Part shown: in pieces, positions 15,688 to 32,000 of the stretch | Layout of the letters: every line of letters starts with the position of its first letter | Numbering within the stretch: the first letter of the stretch is position 1 | From: Acaryochloris marina MBIC11017 | GTDB lineage: Bacteria > Cyanobacteriota > Cyanobacteriia > Thermosynechococcales > Thermosynechococcaceae | Reading direction: 5' to 3' | Assembly: GCF_000018105.1 (NCBI RefSeq) | Contig: NC_009925.1 | Coordinates: forward strand, 5,880,001 to 5,912,000 | DNA: 32,000 bases | Position numbers and translations under genes: made by a program | The notes under the pieces: generated by a model | Told to the model about the DNA's origin: nothing | Seen by the model: only the letters and a program-made list of their open reading frames with translations | Database searches by the model: none

Positions 15688-15939
15688 GAAATTTCATTCA
15701 TCATTAATGTAGACTACAAAGTTGGTGGCCAAAAGGTCTGAGTTGAAGCAACATAATAGATATTGATTCTTTTATATGTTCTATCAGATAAAACCAACTG
15801 TTGGAACGACTAAATATCGGTGCGTTAGCTCTTGAAAACGAAATAAATTATTTTTCCCAGATTCACAAGTCATCATTAATCTAATAAGGGCTTGCTTCGG
15901 AAGTCTAAGTTCCAATATTTGCAGTGTATCCAAGTGTTG

Positions 15940-17600
15940 AGGGCCCTTGAGAAGTGCAAGGAAAATCATTCAAAATATTTAAAACCCTTGCACCTGCAAC
16001 CCGATGTATCGCCGTCCATCCCCCGGTCAACTGTCCTTTGAGAACTTCTACTTGCCCTTTGGAGGGAAACTTTCAGGAGAGAATCGCTGGGTCAAACTAG
16101 CCGAGTTGATTCCTTGGGAGAGCTTTGAGTCAGAATATGCAGACCAATTCAGTCAGACCATGGGGGCACCTGCCAAACCCTTTCGTGTGGCCTTAGGGAC
16201 CTTAATCATCAAAGAGAAACTGGGTATATCCGACGCAGAGACCGTAGAACAGATTCGAGAGAACCCCTACTTGCAGTACTTTCTGGGGTTTAGTGAATAT
16301 CGAGAGAGTGCTCCGTTTGATGCCTCCATGCTGGTTCACTTTCGCCAACGGTTGAATCTAGAGCTGCTAGCTCAAGTCAATGACGCAGTCGTGGACTCTG
16401 TGCTGGCATCCGAGGGGTCTCCTGTGGCGATGTCCCCTGAGTCATCTCCTCCCTCTGACGATGATGAAGATGAGCCTCCTGCCCCTCCCAACCAGGGCCA
16501 ATTGTTGATAGATGCGACCTGTGCACCAGCCGATATTCGCTATCCGACAGACTTGGATTTGCTCAATGATGCCCGCAAAGCAAGCGAAGCCATCCTCGAT
16601 GCTTTATATGCTCAAGTCATGCTGTCCCTCAAGTGCAAACCTCGCACCTACCGCCAGAAGGCCCGCAAAGCCTATCTGGCCATTGCCAAAAAACGTCAAC
16701 CGAGCCGCAAGCTGATTCGTAAAGGGATTCGTCAGCAGTTGGGCTATGTGCGTCGCAATCTAGCCCATATTGATGGGTTGATAACATTGGGGGCTTCCCT
16801 ATCCCAATTGTCCCGGCGGCAGTACCGTCTGTTGCTGGTGATTCATGAAGTCTTTCGACAGCAAGAATGGATGTATCAACAGTCAGTACGTCGAGTGGAC
16901 GACCGGATTGTCAGTATGAGTCAGCCTCATGTCCGACCGATGGTCCGAGGCAAAGCTGGAACACCCGTTGAGTTTGGAGCCAAGCTATCCCTCAGTTGTG
17001 TGCGTGGATGTGTGTTTCTGGAGCGCTTGAGTTGGGATGCGTTCAATGAATCCCAGCATCTTCAACATCAAGTGGAAGCCTTTCGTCGTCGCTTTGGCCA
17101 TTATCCTTTCTCAGTCCATGCTGACCAAATCTATCGGACTCGGGCTAATCGACGATGGTGTAAAGCTCGGGGGATTCGCTTGAGTGGACCGCCGTTAGGA
17201 AGACCTCAACAAGACCCACAAGTACAGACCCAACTCAAGCAACAAGCGTGTGAGGATGAAAAGGTGAGGGTCCAGATTGAGGGTAAGTTTGGGCAGGCCA
17301 AGCGACGGTTTGGCTTGAATCGAGTGATGGCGAAGTTAGCGGATACGGCTGCCAGTGCGATTGCTATCACGTTCTTGGTCATGAATCTGGAGCGGTGGCT
17401 CAGCCACTTTTTATCGTTCATTTTTGGGGTGGGATTGCTGGTTTTGGAAAGCGTTATGGAGCTGTCAGGACTTCCTTGGGGCTTTGCTAGGGCCAGTCAA
17501 AGGATATGGCTCTGGCCGTCACAAATGGGTTGCTTGTACGATTTGATGCATGGAATTTGCTCAATTTACTTTCTCAGCAAACCCTAATAAAAGGGTTAAC
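15940..17600 (+). mobile_element. IS5/IS1182-group insertion sequence (boundaries approximate)
   Basis: Single long DDE-type transposase ORF. Tentative imperfect terminal repeats are GGGCCCTTGAGAAGTGCAA (about 15940) and the reverse complement of TTTACTTTCTCAGCAAACCC (about 17575-17595). The ends are not resolved and no target duplication was identified. Confidence 0.45.
16004..17587 (+). CDS. IS5/IS1182-family transposase
   Basis: 527 aa. The N-terminus SFENFYLPFGGKLSGENRWVKLAELIPWE is typical of the InsH-N (DUF772) transposase domain. The rest is a basic-rich DDE region. Confidence 0.8.
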   Translation: MYRRPSPGQLSFENFYLPFGGKLSGENRWVKLAELIPWESFESEYADQFSQTMGAPAKPFRVALGTLIIKEKLGISDAETVEQIRENPYLQYFLGFSEYRESAPFDASMLVHFRQRLNLELLAQVNDAVVDSVLASEGSPVAMSPESSPPSDDDEDEPPAPPNQGQLLIDATCAPADIRYPTDLDLLNDARKASEAILDALYAQVMLSLKCKPRTYRQKARKAYLAIAKKRQPSRKLIRKGIRQQLGYVRRNLAHIDGLITLGASLSQLSRRQYRLLLVIHEVFRQQEWMYQQSVRRVDDRIVSMSQPHVRPMVRGKAGTPVEFGAKLSLSCVRGCVFLERLSWDAFNESQHLQHQVEAFRRRFGHYPFSVHADQIYRTRANRRWCKARGIRLSGPPLGRPQQDPQVQTQLKQQACEDEKVRVQIEGKFGQAKRRFGLNRVMAKLADTAASAIAITFLVMNLERWLSHFLSFIFGVGLLVLESVMELSGLPWGFARASQRIWLWPSQMGCLYDLMHGICSIYFLSKP

Positions 17601-17937
17601 ATCTCACCAAGACCTTATAACCGCCACTAAGAGATGTGCCGTTTGACTGCATCTTCATTGCTTAGCTGAGACGATTCCAGACCACAGATAGCATGTTAAA
17701 ACTCGTGAAAAATCTTGCAGGGCTAGCGATAGCTCCAGGTGGTGGCAATGCGTGAGACATCGCAATGCAGTGCATCAGTTACCCGAAAGCAAGAGTTTTC
17801 TTGGGGGATGAATATCACTATTTGGAGGTTATGCAGGGAAAGGATTTCAGGCAGAAGCGCGATGTTCTATTGAAATGCTCCTGCTGGTCCTAGTTCGGTG
17901 GTATTACTCAGGGCACCTAGCTACGCTTTTTTAGATT

Positions 17938-18198
17938 ATGGAAATATTAGATAGCCCAATTGCCAGATGTTCCCATATACTGATGAGCTCCCCATCCCAA
18001 CAACAATTGATTCACTACCTCCAAAGCGATTTAGGCGTTTCTGAAAAAGCGATTGATCTTGCTGTGCGTCTTCAACAGCCTTTACAGGGGCCGATTCATA
18101 TCCTTCTATGGCAGTATGGCTTGATTGACATCGTACAGCTTGGCAAAGCTATTGAGTGGTGGGTGAATGAAAGAGAGGATGTCACAAGCAGGGGATGA
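17938..18198 (+). CDS. DUF2949-type small cyanobacterial protein
   Basis: LIHYLQSDLGVSEKAIDLAVR...ILLWQYGLIDIVQLGKAIEWW matches my recollection of the DUF2949 pattern. The true start may be the internal ATG at 17983. Confidence 0.55.
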   Translation: MEILDSPIARCSHILMSSPSQQQLIHYLQSDLGVSEKAIDLAVRLQQPLQGPIHILLWQYGLIDIVQLGKAIEWWVNEREDVTSRG

Positions 18199-18717
18199 TG
18201 CAATTGCTTCCTTGCCAATCACTGATCAGTCAAGACCTTAATCTGCGAATCTTCCTTAGATCAGGTAGTCAGAACTGATATTCCCATAAATTGCTAGTTT
18301 CTCTAGGCTATAGCTTTAGTATTTTTAGGCTTTCAACAAAAATCGCCTCATGATCTGAGGCATTGCAAAGTAAGCCCCATCCGTTCAACGCTGAACATCA
18401 GAAAAATTTGTCTGATTCAGCAAATTATTTCTCCTCAAAACCACGGATGTTTCGACAAATTTATATTTTGTTTAGAAATTATATTGAGTAATTTCCCTGT
18501 CGTCAGGGGGATGGGATAAAAGCCACGATCAAGGGAGTGCAGCAGGGTACCCCTGTTTGGCCAATATCTTCAGTTGGCGTAAAGTTCGTGTGTCTCATTA
18601 TGAATAGTTCCCACTTGAGAGAGTTAGTGAAACACCTAACCAATTTTGAAAAGAACGGTCTTTGCCCAAACCTATATAGCTTGGTCGAGCTGGGTCAACT
18701 AATCAGGAGAGAACGTC

Positions 18718-20184
18718 ATGAGTAATCCATTCGCTCAGCTGCTGGCCCAGCAATTACACTGTTTAGTCAAAATGAGGAATAGCCAACCTCATCAGGAGCG
18801 AGGGTTCGCGCTTCCCCTTGCCCTAGGGTTGGGCTTCATCATGATCTTGCTGGGGATGTCCTCCATGATCATGGCGCAGAGTGATCGGATCACCGCTTGG
18901 AATCGAAAAGAATCTGGTGCAAGTTTGGCTATATCAGAAGGAGGAATGGCTCGTACCCTAGCCCAGCTTACTCAAACGGATAACCGGATTCTCTTGACTC
19001 GAAACTATGACACCATCAATCCCAAGACCGGAACCACCTATCTCGGACCTGATGGCATTCTCAATTCTGGGGATGAAGAGTCTGCCACAGTGGATGAGTG
19101 GACAGGGTATACGGGCAGTAGCTCAACGCCCTGTGATGCAAGTGCAACGACAATCACACCGAATGTCACTCTTTCTGGAGCAATGAATTCAGGGGGCCAG
19201 TATGAGCTTAAAGCCTATCGTTATAATCCCACGGATCAAACCGGGACACTCCTCGTTGAGGGTCAACATGGAGAGAGAATATCCCATATTCTCTCTACCT
19301 TGGTCATCCAGTCAGAGATTGAGAATTTCCCAGGGGTTCTGGCCATGCAGGGAGCCGTTATTCGAGGACGTACTCTTATTGGTCAACATGCCAATCTTTA
19401 CTATGATCCGTCCTGGTCCGCGGACACCAGCTTAACGGATAAGTCAGCACCGAGTGATAGCGACCGTGCGAGCTATCTCAATGCGGTTTACTCAACAGCG
19501 CAAGATGGTCCAGGTAATGATTTGATTGCTGGCAACATTGTGGGATGCCAGATTACCCAAACACTGTCGGTGGATTTACCCGCAACGGTGACGAGTTTAG
19601 GTGAAGTTAAGAGTAGCACCACTCTTACTGCAGCCAACAGCCCCTACCATATCGAAGAACTGGAACTGGATGGTACCGATGTCGTTACCGTGGACACGAC
19701 GGATGGTCCTGTCTACCTGTATGTCACTGAATCCTTTGAATTACGAGGCAATGCTCAACTGAGAAATATCCGCACGGATGGCGAATCTCCACGAGTGGGT
19801 GATTTGAGGATTATTGTTCATAATGCAGGCGCTGGAACACCTCCCATCGAACTGTACGATCAATCCTGCATTGACACCGCTTTTGTCTATAACAAGATTA
19901 ACGACCTCCAGCTACAAGGTTCAGGTGATGGCTGTCCCAGTAGCGGCAATACTAACTTTGATGGGGTGGTATGGGTCGAAGATGTCGTCAGTTCCATCAA
20001 CATCAGTCCCCATACCCGAATCGTGCCTGCTGAGGATGATGACATCATCACGACGAATGGCAGTACATCCGGCATTCGGGTGCCCAACGATGTGTCCAGT
20101 CTGGCTGATGTCGTGAGTGGTATTGGTATCACTCCGACGAATAAATTTGGCTATGTCAAAAGTTGGCAACGGGTGAGGTTGTAG
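18718..20184 (+). CDS. PilX-N-like pilus-associated protein (large minor-pilin-operon component)
   Basis: N-terminus QERGFALPLALGLGFIMILLGMSSM resembles the PilX N-terminal segment. It is followed by a Thr/Ser/Gly/Asp-rich extracellular-type region and sits first in a prepilin gene cluster. Confidence 0.55.
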   Translation: MSNPFAQLLAQQLHCLVKMRNSQPHQERGFALPLALGLGFIMILLGMSSMIMAQSDRITAWNRKESGASLAISEGGMARTLAQLTQTDNRILLTRNYDTINPKTGTTYLGPDGILNSGDEESATVDEWTGYTGSSSTPCDASATTITPNVTLSGAMNSGGQYELKAYRYNPTDQTGTLLVEGQHGERISHILSTLVIQSEIENFPGVLAMQGAVIRGRTLIGQHANLYYDPSWSADTSLTDKSAPSDSDRASYLNAVYSTAQDGPGNDLIAGNIVGCQITQTLSVDLPATVTSLGEVKSSTTLTAANSPYHIEELELDGTDVVTVDTTDGPVYLYVTESFELRGNAQLRNIRTDGESPRVGDLRIIVHNAGAGTPPIELYDQSCIDTAFVYNKINDLQLQGSGDGCPSSGNTNFDGVVWVEDVVSSINISPHTRIVPAEDDDIITTNGSTSGIRVPNDVSSLADVVSGIGITPTNKFGYVKSWQRVRL

Positions 20185-20186
20185 TC

Positions 20187-20774
20187 ATGCATCAATTGAG
20201 ATCGATGAGCCATATCGATCGGTGGTTGTGGTTGTACTTGAAGCGGCCGAAAGCATCTTCAGGAGTTGATTCTTTAAAATCACTCTCTGCGAAGAGTGGA
20301 GGGTTTACCTTAATCGAGGTGTTGGTGGCGATGATTGTTGCTGCTGTGTTTGTCTCCATGACCATGCAGGCCATGGTAACTTCAGCGGCCTTTCGGGTGG
20401 TTGCTACACAATACGACGAGGCCGTGAGTTGGATTCAGGAAGATTTAGAAACCGTTGTCAATCAAGCGGCACAATATGAGATTACGACGCAACCCTACTC
20501 CTCTCGGTGTCTAGCCACCCTCAGTAGTGATGGGTTTGCATCCGGATTTCTCAATGACTCAGCTACGGGATTAGGGGGAGCTTCCACAACCATTGGCCCT
20601 AGAACACTGGGTGGGAAATACTATACCCTCACTCGTACTGCTAACTATGCAAGTTCTTCTGACCCCTATCGGTTGTTAAATGTCACCTATCAAGTGACGG
20701 AACAAGGGGATAGTAAACCGATTGCCACGGTAGAAACTGAGGTCATTCCCCATGCCGTATTCAAATGTCCCTAA
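20187..20774 (+). CDS. Prepilin-type N-terminal cleavage/methylation-domain protein (minor pilin)
   Basis: GG/FTLIEVLVAMIVAAVFVSM with Glu at +5. The leader is unusually long, about 37 aa from ATG 20187; track TTG 20163 would overlap the upstream gene. Confidence 0.75.
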   Translation: MHQLRSMSHIDRWLWLYLKRPKASSGVDSLKSLSAKSGGFTLIEVLVAMIVAAVFVSMTMQAMVTSAAFRVVATQYDEAVSWIQEDLETVVNQAAQYEITTQPYSSRCLATLSSDGFASGFLNDSATGLGGASTTIGPRTLGGKYYTLTRTANYASSSDPYRLLNVTYQVTEQGDSKPIATVETEVIPHAVFKCP

Positions 20775-21331
20775 ATCCCAGGTGATATTTTCTGAATTGC
20801 TGTCCCTTCAACAAAGCTTGATGTCTAATTCCAGATATATCGGCAACAGCCTGCGATTATTGCATGAATTTAGGGCCTCTTGGCCAACAACGGCTTCAGT
20901 ATAAGTATGCAATTTATCGGATATCTATTTTCCTCTTTTGGTGGAAATTCAGTGCTATTCCTGTCGCCAAAGACGCACAGGCAAAGCCAGAATTAGGGGA
21001 GAGCGTTCAAATGAGCTGATTGGTTTGGCCAATATTGTTGATTTGAATTAACCACCCAGTGAAATTTTTTATATCCATTAAAGATTTGTAATTCCTGGTT
21101 CTAGCTCATTCTCTCGCTAGAGAAGAACCTCTGATAGGCACTGCTAAGAATTGCGTGGGTAATGGCTTCGCCCCTACCGAAGCAACTTCATGCGCCTTAG
21201 TTCTGAAATTTTCGGTTGAGAATTTCTTTGCCAAATTCCTTGAGTAATGCAGAGTTGCCATCAATTTAGTGACGCTTCATCGCTCTCAGGGCCTCTTTCG
21301 AGCCCTGTTTATATTGCCGCTGTGATGTTCC

Positions 21332-22165
21332 ATGTTCCATTTCAATGCTCTCATTCCTCTAAGATCTTCTCCTTCAAATGCGGGATTTACCCTCCCAGAA
21401 AAGATGGTGATTTGCTGCCTTATCGGTATTGCTGCCGCTGCCTCTGCACCCAGCCTGATGGCTTCCATGAATCGGGCCAAGGTGAAACAGACGATGGCTG
21501 AGGTTCGGTCTGCTCTGAATGAAACCCAACGAGAAGCCATCAAGGGCAACAAAATTTGTACCCTTACTCTCAACTTTGTAGAAGGGAAGATTACTGGTCC
21601 TTGCCTCAAATCGGGGGATCGGACGTTGGATGCTGATGTGGCCATCGTCACAAACCTGACGGATCCGAGTTCCAGTGAGGCCCTGGATGAAGGGCAACCT
21701 GTTCTGATCGGTTCAGATGTGCAACTCTCACTGGGGCTGAGCGATGGAGAATCTGTTTCTCAAATTGCTATGGCTGCATCTCCTGAAAATACAGTCAACG
21801 ATTCTAAAGCAGGGATGGTAGTCCAGATTATTGCTCATCACAAGAACGGTAATGGCAACAAGGAGGGGGGAACACAAGGAAGCGATAATCCTCCTAACTC
21901 ATCAGCTTCTTCAGCCAGTATTCCCATCAAATATGGGGTGTTAGGTAATCCCGAATTTGCTATTGTCAGTGCTCAACAAACGCCGACGGACCCCACCGGC
22001 AAAATTGTCTTCTACAACCCACAAGATTCCCAAGTGACGAAACGCTGTATTGCTATTTCAAACACCCTTGGATTGACCCGTATTGGCACCTATCAAGGAG
22101 ACCTCAAACCGACCTCGATTACAGACTCCGGTCGATGCACTGCGGAGAACTGGGAAGAGCAATAA
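21332..22165 (+). CDS. GspH/FimT-like pseudopilin
   Basis: NAG/FTLPEKMVICCLIGIAAAAS prepilin signal, followed by RAKVKQTMAEVRSALNETQREAIK, typical of the GspH/FimT domain start. Confidence 0.65.
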   Translation: MFHFNALIPLRSSPSNAGFTLPEKMVICCLIGIAAAASAPSLMASMNRAKVKQTMAEVRSALNETQREAIKGNKICTLTLNFVEGKITGPCLKSGDRTLDADVAIVTNLTDPSSSEALDEGQPVLIGSDVQLSLGLSDGESVSQIAMAASPENTVNDSKAGMVVQIIAHHKNGNGNKEGGTQGSDNPPNSSASSASIPIKYGVLGNPEFAIVSAQQTPTDPTGKIVFYNPQDSQVTKRCIAISNTLGLTRIGTYQGDLKPTSITDSGRCTAENWEEQ

Positions 22166-22188
22166 AACATCACATGGGGGAATAGGGT

Positions 22189-23220
22189 TTGAATCAGCAG
22201 CCGGACAATCAGACATCGACTCTCCATCACGGGTATACCCTCGTGGAACTGTTGATTGCCACTATCATCACCAGTTTGGTGGTTAGTATTGCAGGTTACG
22301 GCGTTATAGCAGCAACCCAAGCCAACAAGCGGACGGAAGCGATTGCGGCTAGACGGCATGATTTAAGTCGGGCATTCGATTTCATCAGCAATGAAATTCG
22401 GATGGCCCACCGGATTAACCAATCTCAACTAACGAAGGCAACAAACCCTTCATCCATGTCGAGTCTATTAACAAGCGCAGGTTTGAATGCCTCCGATTGG
22501 ACGACCCCAGTCCTTTACTTAGAAATTCCCATCACCACCCAAGTCCCTGAGGTTTGCCCGACAGGCGGCCCCAATGCGGGTTCCCCACCTCCTCAACCAG
22601 CTGCCTACGATCAGGTGGTGTATGATATCCGTCCCAGTACTCAAGATTGGTTAGCGCCCAATTCGATATATAGATATGGCCGAGTTCCCAGAAGTGATGG
22701 CAGTATCGACCCCTGTAGTGATCCCGTTGCGAGTGATACCTTAGTGGATGCGATCGCAATGAACGTTGATACAACACCCGACTGCCCTACCCCTGGAGTA
22801 CTCATGGGAACAGGAGGGTTTCAAGCATGTGTGAATGGTAACCAGGTGGATTTATTCATGCGCAGCCGAATCTCAGAGTTTGAGATTCACCGTTTAAGCA
22901 GTACCGCAACCTCCCGCTCAGGGAATAGCCAGCCTATCCCAGTACTCACTGCAGTTCAGCAACCCGGAACCAATAATGTTGATTTGAACTGGCAATGGTC
23001 TGGTTCCACCAATGGGGTCACCTTTGAAGTCAAGAAGGAAATTACAACAACTGCACAAAAGTCCAAAATAAAAACAGGCGCAGATAGTAGTCAATCATTT
23101 GAGATGCAAGGCTCTCCAGGAGATCAGCATTGCTATTCTGTCACGGCAAAGGTGGGGCAGATCACTAGCCCGGAGAGCAACAAAGCTTGTTTTACACAGA
23201 TTGCAAATCCCATCAATTAA
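22189..23220 (+). CDS. Prepilin-type minor pilin with a C-terminal Fn3-like module
   Basis: HHG/YTLVELLIATIITSLVV. The C-terminal ~90 aa (PVLTAVQQPGTNNVDLNWQWSG...CYSVTAKVGQITSPESNKACF) has a beta-sandwich/Fn3-like pattern. Confidence 0.7.
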   Translation: MNQQPDNQTSTLHHGYTLVELLIATIITSLVVSIAGYGVIAATQANKRTEAIAARRHDLSRAFDFISNEIRMAHRINQSQLTKATNPSSMSSLLTSAGLNASDWTTPVLYLEIPITTQVPEVCPTGGPNAGSPPPQPAAYDQVVYDIRPSTQDWLAPNSIYRYGRVPRSDGSIDPCSDPVASDTLVDAIAMNVDTTPDCPTPGVLMGTGGFQACVNGNQVDLFMRSRISEFEIHRLSSTATSRSGNSQPIPVLTAVQQPGTNNVDLNWQWSGSTNGVTFEVKKEITTTAQKSKIKTGADSSQSFEMQGSPGDQHCYSVTAKVGQITSPESNKACFTQIANPIN

Positions 23221-23305
23221 TCCAGACAGTCTTGGTTAGCTCAACATTCAACACCTTATCCAATATTGACATGCAAAAAATCATCCGATCTTGCTAGATT
23301 TTGTA

Positions 23306-24248
23306 TAGCACTACGAAATCGTGTTAGTACTATTGAATAGAAGATACGTCTAAATCAGTATGCCAGCACCCTATAGTTACGACCTTCGCTGCAAAGCCCT
23401 TGCAGCGGTCAAGAATGGTGAACGAAAAGTTGACGTGTGCCGGATGTTCAATATCAGTCGTAACACGTTGCATCTATGGATAGTCCGTGAGGAATCCACA
23501 GGCGACTGCCAGGCGATTACCAACTATCAACAAGGAGCTCGCCACAAGATCACAGATTGGGACCGTTTTCGTGAGTTTGCCCAAGAGCATGGCGGGAAGA
23601 CCCAGGCCCAAATGGCCAAACTATGGGGAGATAATGTCACCCAGCAAAATATCAGTGATGCCTTGAGAAAGCTGGGATTGAGTCGAAAAAAAAGACCTAT
23701 GGCTATCGAGAACGGGATGAAACACAACGCCAAGAGTTTATAGAGCGACTAAAGACTAAACATGCCCATCAGATCGTCTATGTAGATGAAGCGGGTATCG
23801 ATAATCGAGCGGACTATCCCTATGGATACGGCCCCATTGGCCAACGATTCTATGACCTCAAATCAGGCAAGCGGACAGAGCGAGTCAGTTTCATTGCTGC
23901 GCTTAAAGAAGGTCAGTTATTTTCTCCCATGACCTTTGAAGGGTCTTGCAATTGGTTGTTATTCGAAGCGTGGTTACAGCAGAGTCTTATACCCCAGTTG
24001 CAACCGGGCGATATCATCGTGATTGATAATGCCAGTTTTCATCATGGTCTGAGTATTGAAGAAATCGTAGCTGAAGCAGGCTGTGAGATTTGGTATCTAC
24101 CGAGCTATTCTCCAGATCTCAATAAAATCGAGCGATGGTGGTTTGTGCTCAAAAACTGGATGAAGCAACGGTGGGATGAATTTGACACTTTCCGTGATTG
24201 TGTGGATGCTGCTTTTAAAGAGTGTACTAACGTGCTCCCGTAATGCTA
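23306..24248 (+). mobile_element. IS630/Tc1-mariner-family insertion sequence, copy 1
   Basis: Imperfect terminal inverted repeats TAGCACTACG...GTTAGTAC (23306-23330) and its counterpart ending at 24248, 19 of 25 positions matching. Flanking TA dinucleotides at 23304-23305 and 24249-24250. Sits in an intergenic position. Confidence 0.8.
23360..24243 (+). CDS. IS630-family transposase, two frames joined by a -1 frameshift at the A8 run 23686-23693
   Basis: ORF1 is the HTH part (23360-23743). Hand translation of the -1 frame is open from the A-run through VYVDEAG, VIDNASFH and YSPDLNKIERWW (the DDE triad) to 24243. Confidence 0.8.
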
Positions 24249-24419
24249 TAGAACCTAAAAACATAAAAATTAGATTAGAACTAATAGAAAAAGGAGGTAA
24301 TTTCGGCGTAATTACTGAGTTATTACACTCGGGTTATGACTAGGCTAGAACTATCTGGGAGTAGCAACTTTGAGTTTGACTCTCAGCATTATCGGAGTCA
24401 CACATTCTGAAGTTTGATC

Positions 24420-24776
24420 ATGTTCTCAGCCGATATCACAGAATATTATTTAGAACATTCTCGGCCCACGCTAACAGCATCCAGCACAACATCACTCAAC
24501 GTACCAGTGATTGAGTCTTGGCGTTGCATTGACATTAGGAATCAAGTGATTATTCGAGGGCGGATCTTTAACCATCCCAAATATCCAGCAGGAAAATCAC
24601 TGAAATCTTCACCTATTCAAGGTTGTTTGACCAAAGCTGGTCGAGTATATGTGACGACAAAGAACTCCATGTATGAGCTGGGTACACCCCATTCTGATTG
24701 TGCTAATGATGTTCTAGATTGGCTTAACTACACGGATCATCAACCCATAGAGAAAGTGACTTATTGGGGAGAGTAG
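24420..24776 (+). CDS. Small conserved hypothetical protein (paralog of 15370-15687)
   Basis: Same motif set as the first copy (VIESW, IIRGR, HPKYPAG, NSMYELGTP). Track start 24414 is TTG; ATG is at 24420. Confidence 0.6.
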   Translation: MFSADITEYYLEHSRPTLTASSTTSLNVPVIESWRCIDIRNQVIIRGRIFNHPKYPAGKSLKSSPIQGCLTKAGRVYVTTKNSMYELGTPHSDCANDVLDWLNYTDHQPIEKVTYWGE

Positions 24777-25787
24777 TACTTGGGTAGCCAAGTTAGATTA
24801 TCTCAGCCCTTGCACTAAGTAAAGCTTAAGAAAGGTCCTATTTAAGGAAGTAATTAGCCAAGATACACCCACAGGAAAAAGGTCGTTACTTTTGGAGTTA
24901 GCTTGCGTAAAATCCATTGTCAAGTGGGCCTTAAAAATTTATATAGTACGAAAAGTCTACAGACAAGATCAGATTCGGTACCTAAACTGTCGTCTCTGTA
25001 GTCTCGAATTCAGCGAAGGAAAGAATACCACCTTTTTGAATAAAAAGATTCAAGAAATTTGTGCAACAGCAGTAGGTCGTCAAACTGCAGAAAGGTCGTT
25101 CAAAAAAACGTTGGAGGAAACAATAGTCTTTATCAAACCACAGTGCAAGTGAGGATTTTAATTTAGAGCAACTGCTCCCACAGCTCATCAGTATACCCAA
25201 ATATTCTCTGATAAAGATCAATCAGAATTATCATTTGAGGCTACATCCGAGTGAATATGATTGATTCAAGAAACTGGCTTTATCATGGTCAACTCCTTCA
25301 AAATTTGAGTGTTTCCGAACGAGTGCAAGTCCTGGCTGGTAATAGGCTGAGAGAATAAATCTTTATTTCTGGTTGCTGTCCTCAGACGATTGATCAGAAT
25401 TCTTCTTCCAAGAGATTGTCTCCGCTAGCTTCGCAGACACCTTCTTCTGAAGCTGGTTGCGATTGTCATCATAGAACTTGAGAGTATTGAGATTGGCGGT
25501 TGGCATTGGTCGATTTCAAAATTGAGTAGATGTTGCCATCGGACATCGCCAGATGAATAAGGGAATGAGTTGGTCAGCGAGAGGAAGTCGTGCTTTAGCT
25601 GTACTATAAACCTTGACAACCCCAGTGAAACCTCGACTTATACGCTTTCTGATGTAGGAAAATCTTAATTAAGCAAGACTTTGAAATTCATTCGCATCAC
25701 TTTGTCAGGTGTGCTCTCGGCTTGGGTATTCTCAACTAAAAAGAGATGAGAATAAAGCAATTCTCTGATCTATCACAGAACGTTTGT

Positions 25788-25822
25788 GGACAGTTCCAGT
25801 ACCGAGAACTGTCCCTTTTTTT
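25788..25822 (+). terminator. Orphan rho-independent terminator
   Basis: Perfect 9-bp stem GGACAGTTC / GAACTGTCC, 9-nt loop, then C plus a T7 run (25816-25822). No annotated ORF ends nearby. Confidence 0.55.
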
Positions 25823-26104
25823 AAACAAAAATTTCTCATAGGAATAAAATAATCGATTTAATCGGGTGACTAATTTAATCGCTCTTTTGAGTGTCGATCC
25901 CATTTACCTTGCTGGCTAATTGGGATAAGAGTGGAATCATGATTTAGCTGGTGTTTATGCTCATCGTTACTCATCAATCTATCTCGGCTTGGCGTTAGAT
26001 GAGTCAAATAAGGGACGCATTAATAGTACAAATAAACTAATATGGTTGTTGGCACGATTTTCTACAAGCCTCTCTGTCAATATGAATGATTCATTCAGCC
26101 ATTC

Positions 26105-26371
26105 ATGAGTAGTTCATCTCTATTGCTGTCTCGTAAAGATGCCTTGCACATTCTGTCTGAGGAGCGAGGACGCTCTCCTGCCCATCCTCTTGACCCTAGC
26201 CTGATCAGCAAGTGGTGCGCAGATTTGGGCTTTGCTTCGGGCCTGCAGGAGTTTGATGAAGCACAGATGGCTCAACTAAGAGCGATGAATCAGCACTACT
26301 TCCAGGGGGGTAGCAGGATTGAGCTTCTTGAAAAGATGAGGAATCCCAAATGGTATCAATCACCGAACTGA
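26105..26371 (+). CDS. Small hypothetical protein, first gene of the 26.1-32 kb operon
   Basis: 88-aa ORF. Its stop overlaps the next in-frame ATG as TGATG (26369-26373). Confidence 0.45.
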   Translation: MSSSSLLLSRKDALHILSEERGRSPAHPLDPSLISKWCADLGFASGLQEFDEAQMAQLRAMNQHYFQGGSRIELLEKMRNPKWYQSPN

Positions 26372-26868
26372 TGAAATATGGCAGTCGTCGCAAAGTCGAG
26401 GCGATCGCAGCTGAACTCGGCTACCCCAAAGCCGATGAATACCCAGAAGAAGTCCTAGAAGAAGTTCAGAAAAGAATCAGTACCAAGAAACAGTCCGTCA
26501 GTTCTAAAGCCCACACTGCAGCCGATTCTGAGACGGAAGCCGAAGCACAGCAGGATCTTCGCTATGTGCAAGAGGCCGCTGAGCACCGAGCCGCAGGGCT
26601 GCTGATTTCCTTAGATGCCCTGACTATGATGCATTGTGCCTCGCGCCAGTTCACAGATCCCAAACTGCAACAGGCCGTCAACGACTCCCAAACCCAGCTC
26701 AAACAAATGCTTACAGGCGTAGCTGTCTACTATGACCCCGACCATTTTTTATCCCCCACCCCGCTAGCCCAGATCACGGCTGGGGGGAATGGTTCGACAC
26801 AATCTCCGAAATCGCTCAATGGCAAGCCAAGCGACTCCGAGCTGAACGTCGTCGAAGTCGTTTGCTAA
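26371..26868 (+). CDS. Acidic hypothetical protein
   Basis: ORF 26350-26868. The start is placed at ATG 26371 because of the TGATG coupling with the upstream stop. No recognisable domain. Confidence 0.45.
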   Translation: MKYGSRRKVEAIAAELGYPKADEYPEEVLEEVQKRISTKKQSVSSKAHTAADSETEAEAQQDLRYVQEAAEHRAAGLLISLDALTMMHCASRQFTDPKLQQAVNDSQTQLKQMLTGVAVYYDPDHFLSPTPLAQITAGGNGSTQSPKSLNGKPSDSELNVVEVVC

Positions 26869-26882
26869 CGGTCTTGATTGCT

Positions 26883-26915
26883 GCGATGGCCGAAGGCCGG
26901 TCGGAGACCATCGCA
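26883..26915. repeat. 33-nt palindrome-containing repeat, copy 1 (intergenic)
   Basis: GCGATGGCCGAAGGCCGGTCGGAGACCATCGCA. The termini GCGATGG/CCATCGC are inverted repeats and the core is GGCC-GAA-GGCC. It matches 29940-29972 at 31 of 33 positions. Confidence 0.8.
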
Positions 26916-26991
26916 ATCGGTATCACTATCATCCTCACTAGAACTCCAGGGGATCCCCACAAAACGGAACCCCCAATCGGAACTGAACAAA

Positions 26992-27927
26992 ATGCCGATT
27001 AAACGCCACAAACGCCGACTCGCCAATGGAGAAGAGCGCGTCTATCTCTATGCCGTATCCAAGGATGGCTCTCAGAGAAGATCCCTATCCAGCGTTCCTG
27101 CCAGTTCCGTTTCCCTTCCCCTCTATAGAAAGGCAGAAAAAAATCGTATCGTTGCTGCTTTACAAGCCAACTCTAGCTTGTTGGTTGTCGGTGAAGCGGG
27201 CATCGGCAAAAGTGTTCTGGGTGAAGCTGTGGCTGAGGAGTTGCAGGAGTTAGGTTTTATGGTTGCGATCGCACATCCTCTGACCGCCAAACAAGCCTAT
27301 CTGGATATAGCCCAGCAATTGGGTGTAGAGACAGAAACCATAGAGGGAAGATCCCTGACCTCGAACCAGTTATCGACTGCGATCTCAGAATGGCTGAAAG
27401 ACAATACCGCTTTTATTATCTGTGATGATGCCCATCGGTATACGGTTCAGTTTCGTACCTGGCTCGCTCAGCTCCATGAGCAAGGTCAATCTCTATTGCT
27501 ATTGGCAACATTCCCACCAGCCCGAGATATTTTTCTAAAGTTGCCTCGGATCGAACTCAAACCCCTTACCGATAAGCCCATCCGTCAGATTATGCGTTCC
27601 ATGGCTCAAAGCCTCGGTATCGATATGATGCCGTCTCAATTGTCCAAGTTGCAGCAGCGCTGTGGTGGTAATCCCATGCTGGCTCAGCGAGTGGTCAGGG
27701 AGGAATATCTGGGCCTGGATGCTACCAACCCGGACCACACCCAATGGATTGATGGCACTCCGTTTCTGATCGCCGGACTGATGGTTCTGGTGATTACTCG
27801 CTTTATTGGTCTGGGCCTTAACAGTACCAGCCTCTATTTAATCGGTGGCATTCTCACGGTGGCAGTCGGGGTAATTCGTCTATTGGTTTATGCCATGCCC
27901 CGCAAGTCAGGGAAGTTAGGCCGATGA
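26992..27927 (+). CDS. AAA-type P-loop ATPase with a C-terminal double transmembrane anchor
   Basis: Walker A GEAGIGKS and Walker B AFIICDDAH. C-terminal hydrophobic helices FLIAGLMVLVITRFIGLGL and LYLIGGILTVAVGVIRLLVYA. Start set at ATG 26992; track TTG 26878 would read through the 33-nt repeat. Confidence 0.75.
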   Translation: MPIKRHKRRLANGEERVYLYAVSKDGSQRRSLSSVPASSVSLPLYRKAEKNRIVAALQANSSLLVVGEAGIGKSVLGEAVAEELQELGFMVAIAHPLTAKQAYLDIAQQLGVETETIEGRSLTSNQLSTAISEWLKDNTAFIICDDAHRYTVQFRTWLAQLHEQGQSLLLLATFPPARDIFLKLPRIELKPLTDKPIRQIMRSMAQSLGIDMMPSQLSKLQQRCGGNPMLAQRVVREEYLGLDATNPDHTQWIDGTPFLIAGLMVLVITRFIGLGLNSTSLYLIGGILTVAVGVIRLLVYAMPRKSGKLGR

Positions 27928-28178
27928 TGATTGTCACTCATACTGCCCTGAGTATTGCCGGGACTGCCTTAACGATGGGAACAGCAGATCCAGTTGTACT
28001 GGGAGCGGCTGCCCTAGCAGCCCAGCTCCCAGATATGGATACGAGTAAATCTCTGCCAGGCAGAATTCTCTTCCCGGTGAGTAGATGGTTAGAGAAACGC
28101 TTTCCCCATCGGTCGGTGACCCATAGCTTTATTGCTACCGGGTTGATTGCTTTCATTTCTACGCCCCTGATGTTTATA

Positions 28179-29259
28179 AGCAGATGAACAAAATTAATTA
28201 CATAGAATTTCCTGGTTGTAAACTACCTGAGTCCTCTGTTTACATCCATTGATTTGATGTTATTAGTCCGTCCTATCTCCACCGAAAGCTTACGCTTATT
28301 GCATCGGATTTATCACAGTAGTCGCCATCATCAGGTCAGACAACGCGCCCATTGCCTCATTTTGTTCGCCCAGGGTTGGCCCCCCTACACCTTAGCCTCC
28401 CTTTTTAGTGTGAGTCCTAAAACGGTTTACAACTGGCTTAAGGCTTGGAACAACCGAGGATTTGCAGGACTCTATAATCACCCAGGTCGAGGTCGAAAAC
28501 CGATGTTTAATCCCGACCAACAACAGCAGATTTATGAGTGGACTCAGGCATCTCCCATCCAACTCAATCAGGTGTTAGCTCAGATTGAACAACAGTGGTC
28601 AGTACGCGTGTCAAAGGCCACAGTTAAACGCGTCTTGAAGCAGATGGACATGAGCTGGCATCGCTTTCGCCAAGGGACATCAGGCCAGCCTTTATATGCC
28701 CACTACCTCGAAAAAAACAGCAGTTAGAACATCTCAAGGAACAGGAAGAGAAGGGAGACATCCATCTATTCTTTATGGATGAGAGTGGTTTTTCGTTAGT
28801 CCCCTGTATTCCCTATGGATGGCAACCCATAGGGACGTATCTGGAAATACCGACTCGTTCAAGTAAACGCTTGAATGTTCTGGGGTTTTTGAGTCGACGA
28901 CAAGGGCTACATGCTTATACATCAGAACAGACCATCACCAGTGAGGTTGTCAGTCATTGCATTGATACCTTTTTTGCTGACGTGGAGTTGCCCACCGTCA
29001 TTGTGGTGGATCAAGCCCCTATCCATACGAGCCAATCAATCTATGAGATGAAAGCAGAGTGGGCCGAACGGGGAATTACCTTGTTTGAGTTGCCAAGCTA
29101 TTCTCCCCATCTAAATTTGATTGAGCGTCTGTGGCAATTCATGAAATATCAGTGGATTGAAATGAGTGCCTACTGGGGGTGGTCATCTTTGGTCGAATAT
29201 GTGGAAAGAGTTTTGAAAGCCTACGGCGATGATTATGTAATTAATTTTAGCTAGGTGCT
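28179..29259 (+). mobile_element. IS630-family insertion sequence, copy 2 (unrelated in sequence to copy 1)
   Basis: Terminal inverted repeats AGCA...AAAATTAATTACATA, 20 of 26 positions matching. TA target-site duplication at 28177-28178 and 29260-29261. Confidence 0.85.
28257..29254 (+). CDS. IS630-family transposase, -1 frameshift at the A7 run 28711-28717
   Basis: ORF1 is the HTH part (to 28727). The -1 frame reads KKQQLEHLKEQEEKGDIHLFFMDESGF..., with VVDQAPIH and YSPHLNLIERLW (DDE). Confidence 0.8.
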
Positions 29260-29939
29260 TAAGACAGCCTATTTGGCAAGCGGTTGTCTTAGGTTATTTC
29301 TTTGGTTGGTTTGGGGATGTATTTACAAAGTCTGGGGTCTGTGCGTTTTATCCCAGCTCTGCTCGCTTGGTAATTCCGGGTAATCCTCGCATGAGGTTGT
29401 CTACTGGCAGTGGTGCTGAAGTTTTTGTTTTTGTAGCTCTATTGGCGGTGGCGATCGCAACCATAAACATCAACAGCAATGGAGGTGTATTAACTGCCTT
29501 TAACAAAGTGCTGGGTGTTCCCAGTGGTGCCGTGGAAATTGTGGGTGAAGAGGGGAGTAAATATCTGATGATTGCCCAAATCCGTGGCCGGAATGCCATT
29601 ACCCAACAACGCATTGATGCCAGCTTTGAGGTCATTAAGCCCCTGACTCAGAATGATTTGCTAGTCAAAGATAAACAGGGAATTGTCTATCGAGCGGGCG
29701 TTAGTCAAGAGTCTCAAATTCTGGCGAGTCAGATTCAAGTACAGCGAAGTTCACCTATTTCAGTTCAGCTTCAATCCATCAATTTGGATAGTGATGATGT
29801 TTACGCTGCTGTTGAAAATTTACCCCCAGAACGCACCTATATTACCGGGACTTTGACCATCGAAGATTCTGAGGATTTGCAACTGCGAACCAATCCGCAG
29901 CAGTTCAACTCAATCACGTTACAGCCTGCCCAAGGATAC

Positions 29940-29972
29940 GCGATGGCCGAAGGCCGGTCGAAGACCATTGCA
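29940..29972. repeat. 33-nt palindrome-containing repeat, copy 2 (inside the coding sequence)
   Basis: GCGATGGCCGAAGGCCGGTCGAAGACCATTGCA. It lies in the C-terminal domain of the disrupted hydrolase gene and is translated as AMAEGRSKTIA. Confidence 0.8.
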
Positions 29973-30057
29973 CATCTCGTATCAGCCAGTCCCCAAGAAG
30001 TTGCTCAGCAGCTCGGCTCCTACTTTGCCACTGGATCGCTCATTGTGAGGACCATCA

Positions 30058-31155
30058 ATGTTCGCTCGTGAGAAACCTTTACCCCAAGCTGTACTCAGCC
30101 CCAATGCTCCACAGGCTAATGATCTGATCGAGGAAGATGGAATTCGGTTGGGTAGCGCCTATTGGAATCCTGAGATTCTACCCAATGGGCATATTGTGGC
30201 GATTGGTGCCAGTGGATCGGGTAAGACGCAGACCCTAAAAGCGATCTCCTTTGCAATGCACCAGACCTATCCTCAAATCCAAGTCATCTTGATCGACTTT
30301 CATGGTGATCAAGATATTGCGGGTGAAACCTGCTTCCCCCTTCATATGAATAGTGATTGGGGGATTAATTTGCTGGTGTTGAATTTGGATCCCGAAGGTG
30401 GGGGTCCCAACTTACAGTCGATCCAGGTGGTAGCGCTGTTGAAAAAGACCTTGCGGCTGGGTCCTAATCAGGAGGGTCTTGCGTTGGAAGTTTTGGGAGA
30501 GTGCTATCACCGTCGAGGCATTCTTCAATCTGATAGTTCGACCTGGACGCGTGAGCCACCCAACTTTACGGATGTGCAAAGAGTAATTGAGGACCGAATT
30601 GAGAATGGCTGCAAGGATAGTCAGAAATTACAACTCAAGCTGGCAGCGACCTTTATCTATGGCATTTTCAATCGCGCTCAGCCGGAGTTGAGTGAGAAGC
30701 TGATTCGGATTGATTTATCGAAGTTACCGCCTGAGTTAGCGGCAATCGCTGCTGAATCTTTGGCTCGTCAACTGATGAACAATCATAGATTACAGGGAGA
30801 GATTGAAGGTAAGCTACCTTACACCTATTTATTCATTGATGAAGCTAAAGAGATGCCCAAGATCGCTGGTTCGGCTTGCGATCGCATTATCGCTGATGGT
30901 CGCAAATACGGGTTAGCCCTAGTTCTGGCGTCCCAGTCTGAACGCCATCTCAGCCTAGATGTGATTGGCAACTCTGCGACCAAGATTGTCTTGCCCGTAG
31001 ATCAGACTGAGGCCAAGAAAGTGGCTCGAAAGTTTCGATTTGCAGAACAGAAGGTCGCTCAGTTAAAGCCATTGACAGCATTATGTCGATTTGGGACTCA
31101 AGCTCAACAGGTAGAGATCATCCCTTATTTTCAGAGGATCCAGGAGGAGCGTTGA
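30058..31155 (+). CDS. HerA/FtsK-superfamily (DUF87-like) P-loop ATPase
   Basis: Walker A GASGSGKT, Walker B YLFIDEAKE, and GRKYGLALVLASQS as in HerA-like ATPases. The start overlaps the upstream gene by 14 nt. Confidence 0.75.
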   Translation: MFAREKPLPQAVLSPNAPQANDLIEEDGIRLGSAYWNPEILPNGHIVAIGASGSGKTQTLKAISFAMHQTYPQIQVILIDFHGDQDIAGETCFPLHMNSDWGINLLVLNLDPEGGGPNLQSIQVVALLKKTLRLGPNQEGLALEVLGECYHRRGILQSDSSTWTREPPNFTDVQRVIEDRIENGCKDSQKLQLKLAATFIYGIFNRAQPELSEKLIRIDLSKLPPELAAIAAESLARQLMNNHRLQGEIEGKLPYTYLFIDEAKEMPKIAGSACDRIIADGRKYGLALVLASQSERHLSLDVIGNSATKIVLPVDQTEAKKVARKFRFAEQKVAQLKPLTALCRFGTQAQQVEIIPYFQRIQEER

Positions 31156-31156
31156 T

Positions 31157-31444
31157 TTGATTTCAAGAGTTAGAGCCGTCATCAGAAACAATGTTCCGGC
31201 TTGGCTAAATGTGGAGGTGAACCGATATTTTATTCAGAATTTGCGGGAGGCATTAACGCCGCCTACACCCTCCAAGTCGTTTGGTCCCCATTGGCGACGA
31301 ATTGCTCAGGTCTATAAAGCGTTGGATCAGGCAGAAGCAGGGGCTACATACTCTACGTTGATTCAGCATGTTCGACAGGTGACGGGGACAGGATGTTCAA
31401 GAAAGCTGATTGCCAAATGGAAGCGAGAACGGGGATTACGATAG
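31157..31444 (+). CDS. Small basic protein with a putative C-terminal HTH
   Basis: TTG start 8 nt after a strong GGAGGA (31143-31148) and 1 nt after the upstream stop. C-terminus YSTLIQHVRQVTGTGCSRKLIAKWKRERG. Confidence 0.5.
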   Translation: MISRVRAVIRNNVPAWLNVEVNRYFIQNLREALTPPTPSKSFGPHWRRIAQVYKALDQAEAGATYSTLIQHVRQVTGTGCSRKLIAKWKRERGLR

Positions 31445-32000
31445 CGTTGCTAATGGTGGGGTGCGCTCAGCCCCAGATTTCAAATGAAACTACTGAGACG
31501 ATTGCGGCTGTGTCGCCCACCAGTAAACCTCGACCAGCACCTCCCCAAAAAAATACTCCTCGACGATTAAAGATGCGGTTGACCTTAGATCGGCCAGAAG
31601 ATTTGAAGGTAAAGGTTGGTGATGAAGTTGTAAAGGGGCAACTTCTGAGCGATCGTTCCGTAATCCGAACCAGACTTATGCGGAAGCGAAACATTGTGCG
31701 CCGCAAACTTAAGCAACTTCAAAGGCCAGCCATATCTTCCCTCTCTGCAGTGGAGAAAGCTGAGGTGGAGCAAGCCCGCTTCAATGTGGAACAGGCGAGA
31801 AGTGCAATCTCAGCTTTCCATGCCGATTCTCCCTGGACAGACTATGCCCGCTCCGTGCTGCCAATTTCTGAGAATATTCCATTGAGACAATTGCAGAACC
31901 AGTATCTGCAAGCCAAGGGAGAGCTTGCAATCGCAATTGCCAAGCTACAGGACTCTCAGCAGAGAAATAAAGTTCTACAGCATTCTTCGACTCAAACAGG
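31417..32000 (+). CDS. HlyD/membrane-fusion-protein-like lipoprotein; C-terminus runs off the window
   Basis: Not in the track because it is open-ended. Hand translation gives MEARTGITIALLMVGCAQP (lipobox-like MVGC), a lipoyl-like half-motif LKVKVGDEVVKGQLLS, then coiled-coil-type sequence. The start is uncertain (31393, 31417 or 31453). Confidence 0.55.
   Translation, partial: MEARTGITIALLMVGCAQPQISNETTETIAAVSPTSKPRPAPPQKNTPRRLKMRLTLDRPEDLKVKVGDEVVKGQLLSDRSVIRTRLMRKRNIVRRKLKQLQRPAISSLSAVEKAEVEQARFNVEQARSAISAFHADSPWTDYARSVLPISENIPLRQLQNQYLQAKGELAIAIAKLQDSQQRNKVLQHSSTQT

Follow-up and report, generated by a model that had tools for sequence, protein, structure and literature searches.

What task could bring together, in one tightly packed operon, two unrelated ATPases, a YdjM-type membrane protein and an adaptor-like lipoprotein? 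This is the question raised by positions 26105 to 32000 of a stretch of Acaryochloris marina MBIC11017 DNA of 32,000 nucleotides (nt), hereafter called the window (NCBI RefSeq assembly GCF_000018105.1, contig NC_009925.1, positions 5,880,001 to 5,912,000 of the forward strand). The operon is one copy of a module that recurs, in the same gene order, on plasmids and other mobile elements of four phyla. We regard the module as a multi-component system of a new kind, whose domains belong to known families. The reading we prefer, with a probability of about 0.4, is that the module is an ATP-driven, envelope-spanning apparatus which moves the element's own DNA without a relaxase.

The operon and its interruption

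The seven genes of the operon, for which we will use the terms g1 to g7, and the insertion sequence (IS) that splits one of them are located in the window as follows:

26105–26371, plus strand: g1, small conserved protein of 88 amino acids (aa), from its open reading frame (ORF)
26350–26868, plus strand: g2, soluble protein of 172 aa
26992–27927, plus strand: g3, AAA+ ATPase with a C-terminal transmembrane (TM) hairpin; likely start ATG 26992, ORF opening at 26878
27924–28178, plus strand: g4, 5' part, residues 1–85 of the YdjM (DUF457) polytopic membrane domain
28179–29259, plus strand: IS630-family IS in g4, with imperfect terminal inverted repeats
29262–30071, plus strand: g4, 3' part, the rest of YdjM, the last TM helix and a β-rich C-terminal domain (CTD) of ~190 aa
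30058–31155, plus strand: g5, soluble 365-aa P-loop ATPase of the FtsK/HerA superfamily, DptH/mad8/type IV coupling protein (T4CP)-like branch
31157–31444, plus strand: g6, small putative DNA-binding protein of 95 aa, from its ORF
31417–32000, plus strand: g7, lipoprotein, minimal periplasmic adaptor (membrane-fusion protein), cut by the window end

A preliminary description, made from the sequence alone, had reported seven co-directional and overlapping plus-strand ORFs between 26105 and 32000, and all of them are present in the ORF listing of the window. The junctions that it gave can be read in the sequence: TGATG at 26369–26373, ATGA at 27924–27927, a 14-nt overlap at 30058–30071, a 28-nt overlap at 31417–31444 and a 1-nt gap at 31156, where GGAGGA lies 5' of the TTG start at 31157. 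Its motifs GEAGIGKS, ICDDAH, GASGSGKT, FIDEAKE and GRKYGLALVLASQS are all found in the window translations. Two starts have been set more precisely. The conserved N-terminus MVxITELM places the start of g2 at ATG 26350, so that a 22-nt overlap of g1 and g2 replaces TGATG as the true junction. The start of g3 is most likely ATG 26992, giving 311 aa as annotated in the relative at locus L090 of Acaryochloris sp. CCMEE 5410, and not the ORF opening at 26878. Gene g7 is incomplete, the window ending inside it. Overlaps of 1 to 4 nt between the ATPase and hydrolase genes also occur in annotated relatives, and the arrangement is more than chance, as dozens of loci share this gene order. Around the operon, a search for repeats, promoters and terminators gave nothing meaningful.

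The interruption of the operon by an IS, proposed at the same time, is confirmed. The IS630 element is flanked by a TA target duplication (28177–28178 and 29260–29261), encodes its transposase in two ORFs (28254–28727 and 28775–29254), is 96% identical to IS630 transposase copies on Acaryochloris plasmids and is missing from the orthologous locus L090. In a megablast search of the operon against plasmids, the IS was the sole match. Joining 27924–28178 to 29262–30071 restores an open frame of 354 aa, which is 95% identical to the intact 346-aa protein of Acaryochloris sp. CCMEE 5410. Because the IS630 element splits g4, the window copy is inactive, and the value of this dead copy is that it points to the module family.

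Conservation and distribution of the module

Eighty further loci were taken from GTDB genomes with a YdjM-CTD alignment, and the ORFs of 87 loci were clustered; the partner counts below refer to loci with enough flanking sequence. The recurrent order is c7/g2, the AAA+ ATPase (cluster c1), YdjM-CTD (c0), the HerA-like ATPase (c6), the adaptor (c2) and a TolC-like protein (c5). Annotated neighbourhoods read as ATP-binding protein, metal-dependent hydrolase, DUF87 protein, HlyD-like protein and TolC-like protein, often with a thermonuclease nearby. The partners of the YdjM-CTD gene are distributed as follows:

AAA+ gene directly precedes YdjM-CTD: 71/78 loci
Adaptor gene follows YdjM-CTD: 54/67 loci
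TolC-like gene follows YdjM-CTD: 46/63 loci
HerA-like gene follows YdjM-CTD: 47/74 loci
All four partners (AAA+, HerA-like, adaptor, TolC-like) present: 28/60 loci
Only the HerA-like gene missing: 12/60 loci
Only the TolC-like gene missing: 6/60 loci

The trio of ATPase, YdjM fusion and HerA-like ATPase, singled out in the preliminary description, thus co-occurs elsewhere, both by tblastn and by locus clustering. The universal core of the module consists of the membrane-anchored AAA+ ATPase and YdjM-CTD. The HerA-like ATPase is accessory and stands outside this core: its gene is absent from about a third of the loci, so the core function does not need it. The HerA-less form is found in Thermus, Nitrosococcus, Nodosilinea, Pseudanabaena and Blastocatellia/Acidobacteria.

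In tblastn searches of PLSDB, the HerA-like protein was found on 146 plasmids, the ~30 best matches all being cyanobacterial, and YdjM-CTD on 64. The YdjM-CTD carriers include pSYSX of Synechocystis PCC 6803 (two copies), several S. elongatus plasmids, and plasmids of Microcystis, Nostoc, Gloeocapsa and Stanieria; more distant carriers are Thermus plasmids of ~19–23 kb and plasmids of Nitrosococcus and Allochromatium. MOB-suite typed 63 of the 64 YdjM-CTD plasmids as non-mobilizable, that is, as lacking a known relaxase. A parA gene (c8) lies upstream within 9 kb in 22 of 50 loci, often divergent and adjoining the module. A parA/parB or CyRepA1 replication gene is often next door, and in Microcystis the rep gene adjoins the module. 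Because it travels beside par, rep or int genes and not as variable cargo, the module is either part of a plasmid backbone or what a small, self-replicating integrative element chiefly contains. Restriction-modification, toxin-antitoxin and Abi genes are also frequent neighbours.

Some genomes hold several copies. Five and six were counted in single bins (Cyanobacteriota HOU_bin.0041; Synechococcaceae SM2_3_2; loci L013–L017 and L026–L031), with the separate copies on different contigs, yet three on one 149-kb contig. Multiple copies suggest either one module per replicon or repeated acquisition. In Blastocatellia/Acidobacteria (L032, L033, L041, L046), the module is of the HerA-less form and its YdjM-CTD is 35–39% identical to cyanobacterial proteins; these copies are no more distant than many cyanobacterial ones, which suggests transfer between phyla. 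The module was found neither in 50,697 phage genomes nor in IMG/VR, and a phage origin was rejected on these grounds.

No description or name of the module was found in a full-text literature search, subscription-only papers being outside its scope. The paper on pSYSX replication does not treat the module genes, and they go unmentioned in the Thermus vector paper. The Synechocystis Grad-seq paper concerns a different DUF87 protein, Sll0284, and the marine mobilome paper merely lists DUF87 matches. A literature match for "DUF457" was rejected, as the paper concerns DUF4579.

The YdjM-CTD protein

Rejoined g4 matches the Pfam family YdjM (PF04307) with 77.1 bits over residues 1–153, the cutoff being 29, and the same model is matched by 30 of 30 diverse homologues. 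In the 30 YdjM-CTD homologues, which come from four phyla, residues H6, D37, D39, E57, H62, R63, H67 and D104 are invariant. Similarity of YdjM to Zn-dependent phospholipase C was detected in one of the 30 members and is taken as a hint; the Thermus YdjM part gives a sub-threshold score of 24.6 bits against the same family.

The CTD is modelled by AlphaFold2 (AF2) with a predicted local distance difference test (pLDDT) score of ~90. Searched alone among 1.84 billion representative proteins, it returned 100 relatives, nearly all of them at residues ~165–345 of YdjM proteins of ~345 aa, with a few in proteins of 547–600 aa. Since its relatives lie almost wholly in YdjM proteins, the CTD is a domain private to this system. 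The Pfam match, the AF2 model and the CTD search together bear out the earlier claim that YdjM is fused here to an otherwise unassigned domain. A Foldseek search with the whole YdjM-CTD model gave just a local match, over ~85 residues, to the sugar-binding domain of TrmB; we leave this match uninterpreted. Compared with the 346-aa relatives (L007, P0001), the window g4 has eight extra codons (MAEGRSKT) in the CTD, at 29930–29960; the insertion falls in a loop that is also variable in Gloeocapsa.

The loops of g4 at residues 40–64 and 116–135 are rich in Lys and Arg. By the positive-inside tendency of such loops, as we read it directly from the sequence with no prediction tool, the last TM helix would exit on the periplasmic side, so that the CTD is probably periplasmic, beside the adaptor. 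The conserved metal site would then lie at the cytoplasmic face.

The YdjM-CTD of Thermus sp. CCB_US3_UF1 (plasmid pTCCB09, L004 7881–9533) is 550 aa long. In its C-terminal extension, which resembles an adaptor, a lipoyl-like LVRPGDAVEEGEPLA motif is followed by a long coiled coil and then by VRSPVAGRVAEVKV. This protein would represent a gene fusion of two module components, the hydrolase and the adaptor. No hydrophobic segment separates the CTD from the extension, and therefore both should share one compartment.

The two ATPases

The AAA+ protein g3 matches Pfam AAA_22 at 2.1e-11 (AAA_22/AAA_16 group) and a MuB-like PHROG, annotated as DNA transposition protein, at 4.7e-07. Two hydrophobic helices are located at residues 296–314 and 322–340 of the 349-aa ORF, and together with the Pfam match they support the proposal of an AAA ATPase anchored by two TM helices at its C-terminus. 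Its Walker A and B motifs are conserved across 73 homologues. Matches of g3 to nSTAND and NB-ARC models remain below threshold, the Thermus homologue clearing the nSTAND1 cutoff with 28.0 against 27.1 bits, and the match to PADLOC mad8 is weak.

The assignment of g5 to the HerA/FtsK superfamily agrees with sequence matches in Pfam, PADLOC and the PDB. Pfam TrwB_AAD_bind is matched with 30.6 bits (cutoff 20.5), the best stretch being residues 251–314 alone. PADLOC mad8 is matched at 2.8e-21 (74 bits), and g5 also matches the PADLOC models of HerA and of the C-terminal part of DndH; the match to PADLOC mad3 covers the P-loop only. In the PDB, the ATPase domain of DptH (7es4) is matched at 4.6e-10. 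Several related families score below their cutoffs, namely FtsK_SpoIIIE (20.9 bits, cutoff 24), DUF87 (19 bits, cutoff 23.2), the HerA NCBIfam models (18–24 bits over the Walker regions only, cutoffs 800–970) and VirB4 NCBIfam (best 30.3 bits, cutoff 643). Neither a TM segment nor a match to the HAS-barrel region was found in g5. NCBI annotates relatives of g5 as type IV secretion system DNA-binding domain-containing protein. An exact-match look-up of g5 returned only contigs of ~2 kb.

The Walker motifs are invariant in 47 homologues of g5. Because the Walker motifs and the YdjM His and Asp residues are essentially invariant, the conservation points to active enzymes under selection in the YdjM-CTD family and both ATPase families.

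The adaptor, the TolC-like protein and the linked nuclease

The g7 protein has a lipobox, LLMVGC, and full-length relatives measure 250–310 aa. The AF2 model of the family shows a lipoyl domain and an α-hairpin, with pLDDT mostly >90 in the structured part. The top 20 Foldseek matches in the PDB are all adaptors or pump entries that contain adaptors (MacAB, HlyD, EmrA/EmrAB, Spr0693, AcrA/AcrAB, MexAB and a MacA-MexA chimera), with probabilities of 0.82–1.00 that reach ~1.0 for the best 14. No β-barrel or membrane-proximal domain is present in the model, the chain ending soon after the second lipoyl half. Sequence models barely detect the family, Biotin_lipoyl_2 being matched in 2 of 23 members, and NCBI names g7 relatives efflux RND transporter periplasmic adaptor subunit. 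The HlyD-like lipoprotein that had been suggested for g7 is therefore supported by lipobox, model and Foldseek matches, in a minimal version.

The TolC-like partner (c5) has ~230–390 aa and one OEP repeat, and Pfam OEP is matched in 10 of 21 members; the Thermus protein matches the TolC and NodT NCBIfam models. A channel made from such short proteins (for example L006 11292–12344) would need a stoichiometry unlike that of trimeric TolC. By sequence, the adaptor and TolC-like profiles found nothing significant in the PDB.

Further downstream, a staphylococcal-type nuclease (c11) and a secreted protein (c9) are often encoded. One metagenomic protein of 420 aa, P0146, consists of a g7-family adaptor with a C-terminal staphylococcal-nuclease domain. 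This fusion, a single sequence and possibly an assembly artefact, would tie the often-linked thermonuclease physically to the apparatus. The secreted proteins c9 and c17 appear from their sequences to carry their own N-terminal signal peptides.

The small genes

At its C-terminus, g2 carries a domain homologous to the c7 protein (hhalign probability 97.4%, E = 1.5e-11), which precedes the ATPase in 36 of the 65 loci with enough upstream sequence; the clade of the window has thus kept the c7 component too. The c7 profile found nothing significant in the PDB by sequence. Homologues of g1 (c18) occupy the same position in 6 related loci (L002, L007–L010, L070), and the cluster of g6 (c26) is present in 5 loci, solely those of the clade nearest to the window. 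Scans of Pfam, PADLOC, NCBIfam and PHROG gave no family match for g1, g2 or g6. The ORF of the small helix-turn-helix protein named in the preliminary description is real, and the helix-turn-helix label is unproven, as no family matched.

The Acaryochloris tRNA-Arg island

Upstream of the operon, the window holds the following features, the first four of which make up the backbone of the integrative element:

4305–4378: tRNA-Arg(CCG)
4554–5720, plus strand: tyrosine integrase
6016–8475, minus strand: primase-helicase (AAA_25, 819 aa)
8609–9295, plus strand: CI/LexA-like S24 repressor
9289–26022: block of 16.7 kb between the repressor and g1, outside the module and absent in CCMEE 5410 (blastn of the window against L090)

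On the chromosome of CCMEE 5410, the order is tRNA-Arg(CCG), integrase, two small genes, primase-helicase and S24 repressor, followed directly by g1–g7, and the module is the sole sizeable block of the island besides integrase, primase-helicase and repressor. In a Thermosynechococcaceae genome, too, g1 comes straight after an S24 repressor gene, and a Synechococcaceae genome has such a gene close to the module. The position of the module in the island is that of the transfer module in actinomycete integrative conjugative elements (AICEs). TraB, the transfer ATPase of such elements, is summarised in PMC5365140, and the enterobacterial ydjM gene is under SOS control (PMC8072944).

The 16.7-kb block of the window contains phycobilisome-like, 2Fe-2S ferredoxin and V4R-domain genes on the minus strand (9454–14351), a stretch of low GC content (0.36) at 14000–16000, a DDE transposase (16004–17587), prepilin-type N-methyl proteins (20163–23220) and a second IS630-like element with two ORFs (23360–24243). 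The primase-helicase gene of CCMEE 5410 (L090 3400–5106) is broken by an IS that is 92% identical to the DDE transposase element at window positions 15883–17590. With the IS in g4 of the window and that in the primase-helicase of CCMEE 5410, each strain has a different island gene knocked out.

Comparison with known systems

The preliminary description could not assign the operon to any named system, and none was found in the family, defence or literature searches. The module nevertheless shares parts with several known systems. With the tripartite systems HlyBD-TolC, MacAB-TolC and EmrAB-TolC, it has in common an adaptor with lipoyl domain and α-hairpin, whose gene is adjoined in most relatives by one for a TolC-like partner. 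However, no ABC, RND or MFS transporter occurs among g1–g7 or the recurrent clusters of the 87 loci. The inner-membrane parts are instead YdjM-CTD and the TM-anchored AAA+ protein, with or without the FtsK/HerA-like ATPase, and both the minimal adaptor and the short, one-repeat TolC-like protein depart from their counterparts. A classical type I secretion or tripartite efflux system was rejected for want of a transporter.

TraB conjugation of Streptomyces plasmids and AICEs and TdtA transjugation of Thermus (PMC5365140) resemble the module in that the element is relaxase-free and encodes an FtsK/HerA-superfamily ATPase. As in AICEs, the Acaryochloris element is integrated at a tRNA gene and has an integrase and its own replication protein. 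Unlike TraB, to which its relation is distant, g5 lacks both a TM anchor and a DNA-recognition domain at the C-terminus, and no match to a HAS barrel was obtained for it. A third of the lineages do without g5, and the TraB and TdtA systems have no counterpart to the adaptor, TolC-like and YdjM parts. The module does not qualify as a TraB-type element, given the missing TM anchor and the FtsK_SpoIIIE score below cutoff; no clt-like repeats were found upstream of the operon.

Type IV secretion, including the cyanobacterial mating-pair formation (MPF) type MPF-C (PMC8600333), is suggested by the TrwB_AAD_bind score of g5, which lies above cutoff over a short stretch of a protein with no TM segment, and by the NCBI name of its relatives. 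On the other hand, the module has no VirB4 and no VirB4-sized protein recurs in it, no relaxase family matched g1–g7, and no other MPF component was detected. A classical type IV secretion system was rejected for these reasons.

Among HerA/DptH defence systems (Dnd/Dpt, MADS, Sir2-HerA, DUF4297-HerA), the likeness is confined to the g5 ATPase core, which aligns with mad8, with the C-terminus of DndH/DptH and with HerA. The neighbourhood of the module is completely different: it has no DptF or DptG, methyltransferase, other mad genes, Sir2, DUF4297 or NurA, and g5 gives no HAS-barrel match. The 365 aa of g5 align with the C-terminal ATPase part only of the ~1700-aa DptH. HerA-NurA was rejected because the HerA scores lie far below the cutoffs and neither a HAS barrel nor a NurA partner was found; MADS, because mad8 is the sole strong match and, apart from the P-loop match of mad3, the other mad proteins are unmatched; and Dnd/Dpt, because DptF, DptG and a full-length DptH are all missing.

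ExeA/GspA and MuB/TniB are approached by g3, through its AAA_22/AAA_16 group and its match to the MuB-like PHROG. ExeA is anchored in the inner membrane with its ATPase in the cytoplasm, as g3 would be. In contrast to ExeA/GspA, g3 ends in a TM hairpin and lacks a peptidoglycan-binding domain in the periplasm, and the module encodes no secretin, pseudopilus or transposase partner.

Possible functions of the module

In the reading that we prefer, the parts of the module would be arranged as follows. YdjM-CTD would form the inner-membrane platform, with the metal site in the cytoplasm and the β-rich domain in the periplasm, and the MuB/TniB/ExeA-type g3 would be held beside it by its TM hairpin, with g2 (c7 elsewhere) as a soluble partner. 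In about two thirds of the lineages, g5 would dock on the cytoplasmic side as an added motor. The adaptor g7 would link the periplasmic domain to the short TolC-like outer-membrane protein, and the assembly would drive the element DNA out of the donor cell, in analogy to TraB transfer or the "push" of Thermus transjugation. The LexA/CI-like repressor upstream would make expression damage-inducible, a further point in favour of DNA that resembles the SOS control of enterobacterial ydjM.

DNA is favoured as the substrate for several reasons. The carriers, which have no relaxases, clearly move between phyla nonetheless; the ATPases g5 and g3 come from groups that handle DNA; and a nuclease is linked to the module. 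In addition, Thermus, Synechocystis and S. elongatus are naturally competent, and the competence of several hosts would fit a donor that pushes and a recipient that pulls. Push-pull DNA transfer has a precedent in Thermus (PMC5365140), and plasmid spread by transformation has been described in Synechocystis (PMC10667661).

A number of observations weigh against DNA transfer. The obvious DNA pump, g5, is the very component that about a third of the loci lack, and no replacement ATPase was found near the HerA-less loci. Where present, g5 has neither TM segments nor a TraB-like DNA-recognition domain, and its nearest scored relatives, DptH and mad8, belong to defence systems. The closest relatives of the window, L007 and L090 of the Acaryochloris clade, have no TolC-like gene downstream. 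For the CTD, neither a sequence profile nor Foldseek gave a convincing fold match in the PDB, and the adaptor matches of the Thermus extension are weak (hhalign E = 0.0016; Pfam Biotin_lipoyl_2 E = 0.0011). A nuclease in the periplasm, next to a duct for DNA, fits poorly with export. Finally, searches for an attR of the island, as a repeat of the tRNA 3' end, and for clt- or oriT-like repeats or a repeat array upstream of the operon were negative.

A rival reading is a defence or exclusion function carried on mobile elements, which we consider unlikely. Here g3 and g5 would sense invading phage or plasmid DNA and YdjM, as a phosphodiesterase-like membrane enzyme, or the periplasmic nuclease would respond, the outcome being abortive infection or, in competent hosts, breakdown of the incoming DNA. 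The preliminary description leaned in this direction, which gains little support here. In its favour, g5 is similar to mad8 (2.8e-21), the DndH C-terminus, HerA models and the DptH domain in the PDB. The sub-threshold nSTAND/NB-ARC matches of g3, above the nSTAND1 cutoff in Thermus, also point this way, as does the linked nuclease, once fused to the adaptor. Restriction-modification, toxin-antitoxin and Abi genes lie often nearby, and inactivation by an IS is, as already pointed out in that description, common for costly accessory loci. On the other side, the partner genes of the mad8 and DndH systems are absent, PADLOC has no match to g1, g2, g4, g6 or g7, and it reports no complete known system. 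Furthermore, g3 has no sensor domain beyond its ATPase and TM hairpin. Modules that lie beside par, rep and int genes in four phyla, on plasmids of ~19–23 kb and in multiple copies look more like a replicon-specific backbone than like shuffled defence cargo, and we know of no precedent in defence systems for an adaptor with a TolC-like duct.

The duct itself would be explained if the module were a system for secretion or efflux, similar to type I but with an inner-membrane engine of a new kind, exporting the nuclease, secreted proteins, a toxin or a small molecule. The adaptor fold of g7, the TolC-like partner, the NCBI efflux RND adaptor name and the genes for secreted proteins (c9, c17) and nuclease just downstream in many loci all agree with this. 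However, the module has no ABC, RND or MFS transporter, and the linked secreted proteins, which seem to have their own signal peptides, need no one-step exporter. Export would also leave the FtsK/HerA-type and MuB-like AAA+ ATPases without a role and the strict confinement to mobile elements unexplained, which makes it, in our view, a rather improbable function. Plasmid maintenance, in which the membrane-anchored DNA-binding AAA+ protein and its partners would tether or position the replicon at the envelope together with the adjacent ParA, is very improbable: it would suit the parA gene within 9 kb in 22 of 50 loci (often divergent beside the module), the resemblance of g3 to MuB, TniB and ORC-type DNA-binding AAA+ proteins and the replicon specificity suggested by several copies per genome, but tethering needs no adaptor, TolC-like protein or periplasmic CTD, and the module is also present in a chromosomally integrated element, which needs no partitioning.

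Implications

Most cyanobacterial plasmids have no known conjugation genes, and an unrecognised transfer mechanism has been suspected since 2010 (PMC8600333). A wider, more doubtful proposal than the apparatus itself is that the module is a relaxase-independent DNA-transfer machine of double-membraned bacteria, which would explain the spread of the many "non-mobilizable" plasmids and small integrative elements in cyanobacteria, Thermus and other hosts. Since the module is located on plasmids of Synechocystis PCC 6803 (pSYSX), S. elongatus UTEX 3055 and PCC 11801, Microcystis and Nostoc, the hypotheses on its function are testable by deletion. The answer is relevant to the engineering of stable cyanobacterial vectors and to the prediction of plasmid mobility. 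Even if the function turned out to be defence or export, the module would be an envelope machine of several components not described before, and the uncharacterised YdjM/DUF457 family would have its first functional setting. If it is DNA transfer, conjugation-like apparatuses would gain a new class, and the adaptor/TolC architecture would be put to a new use.

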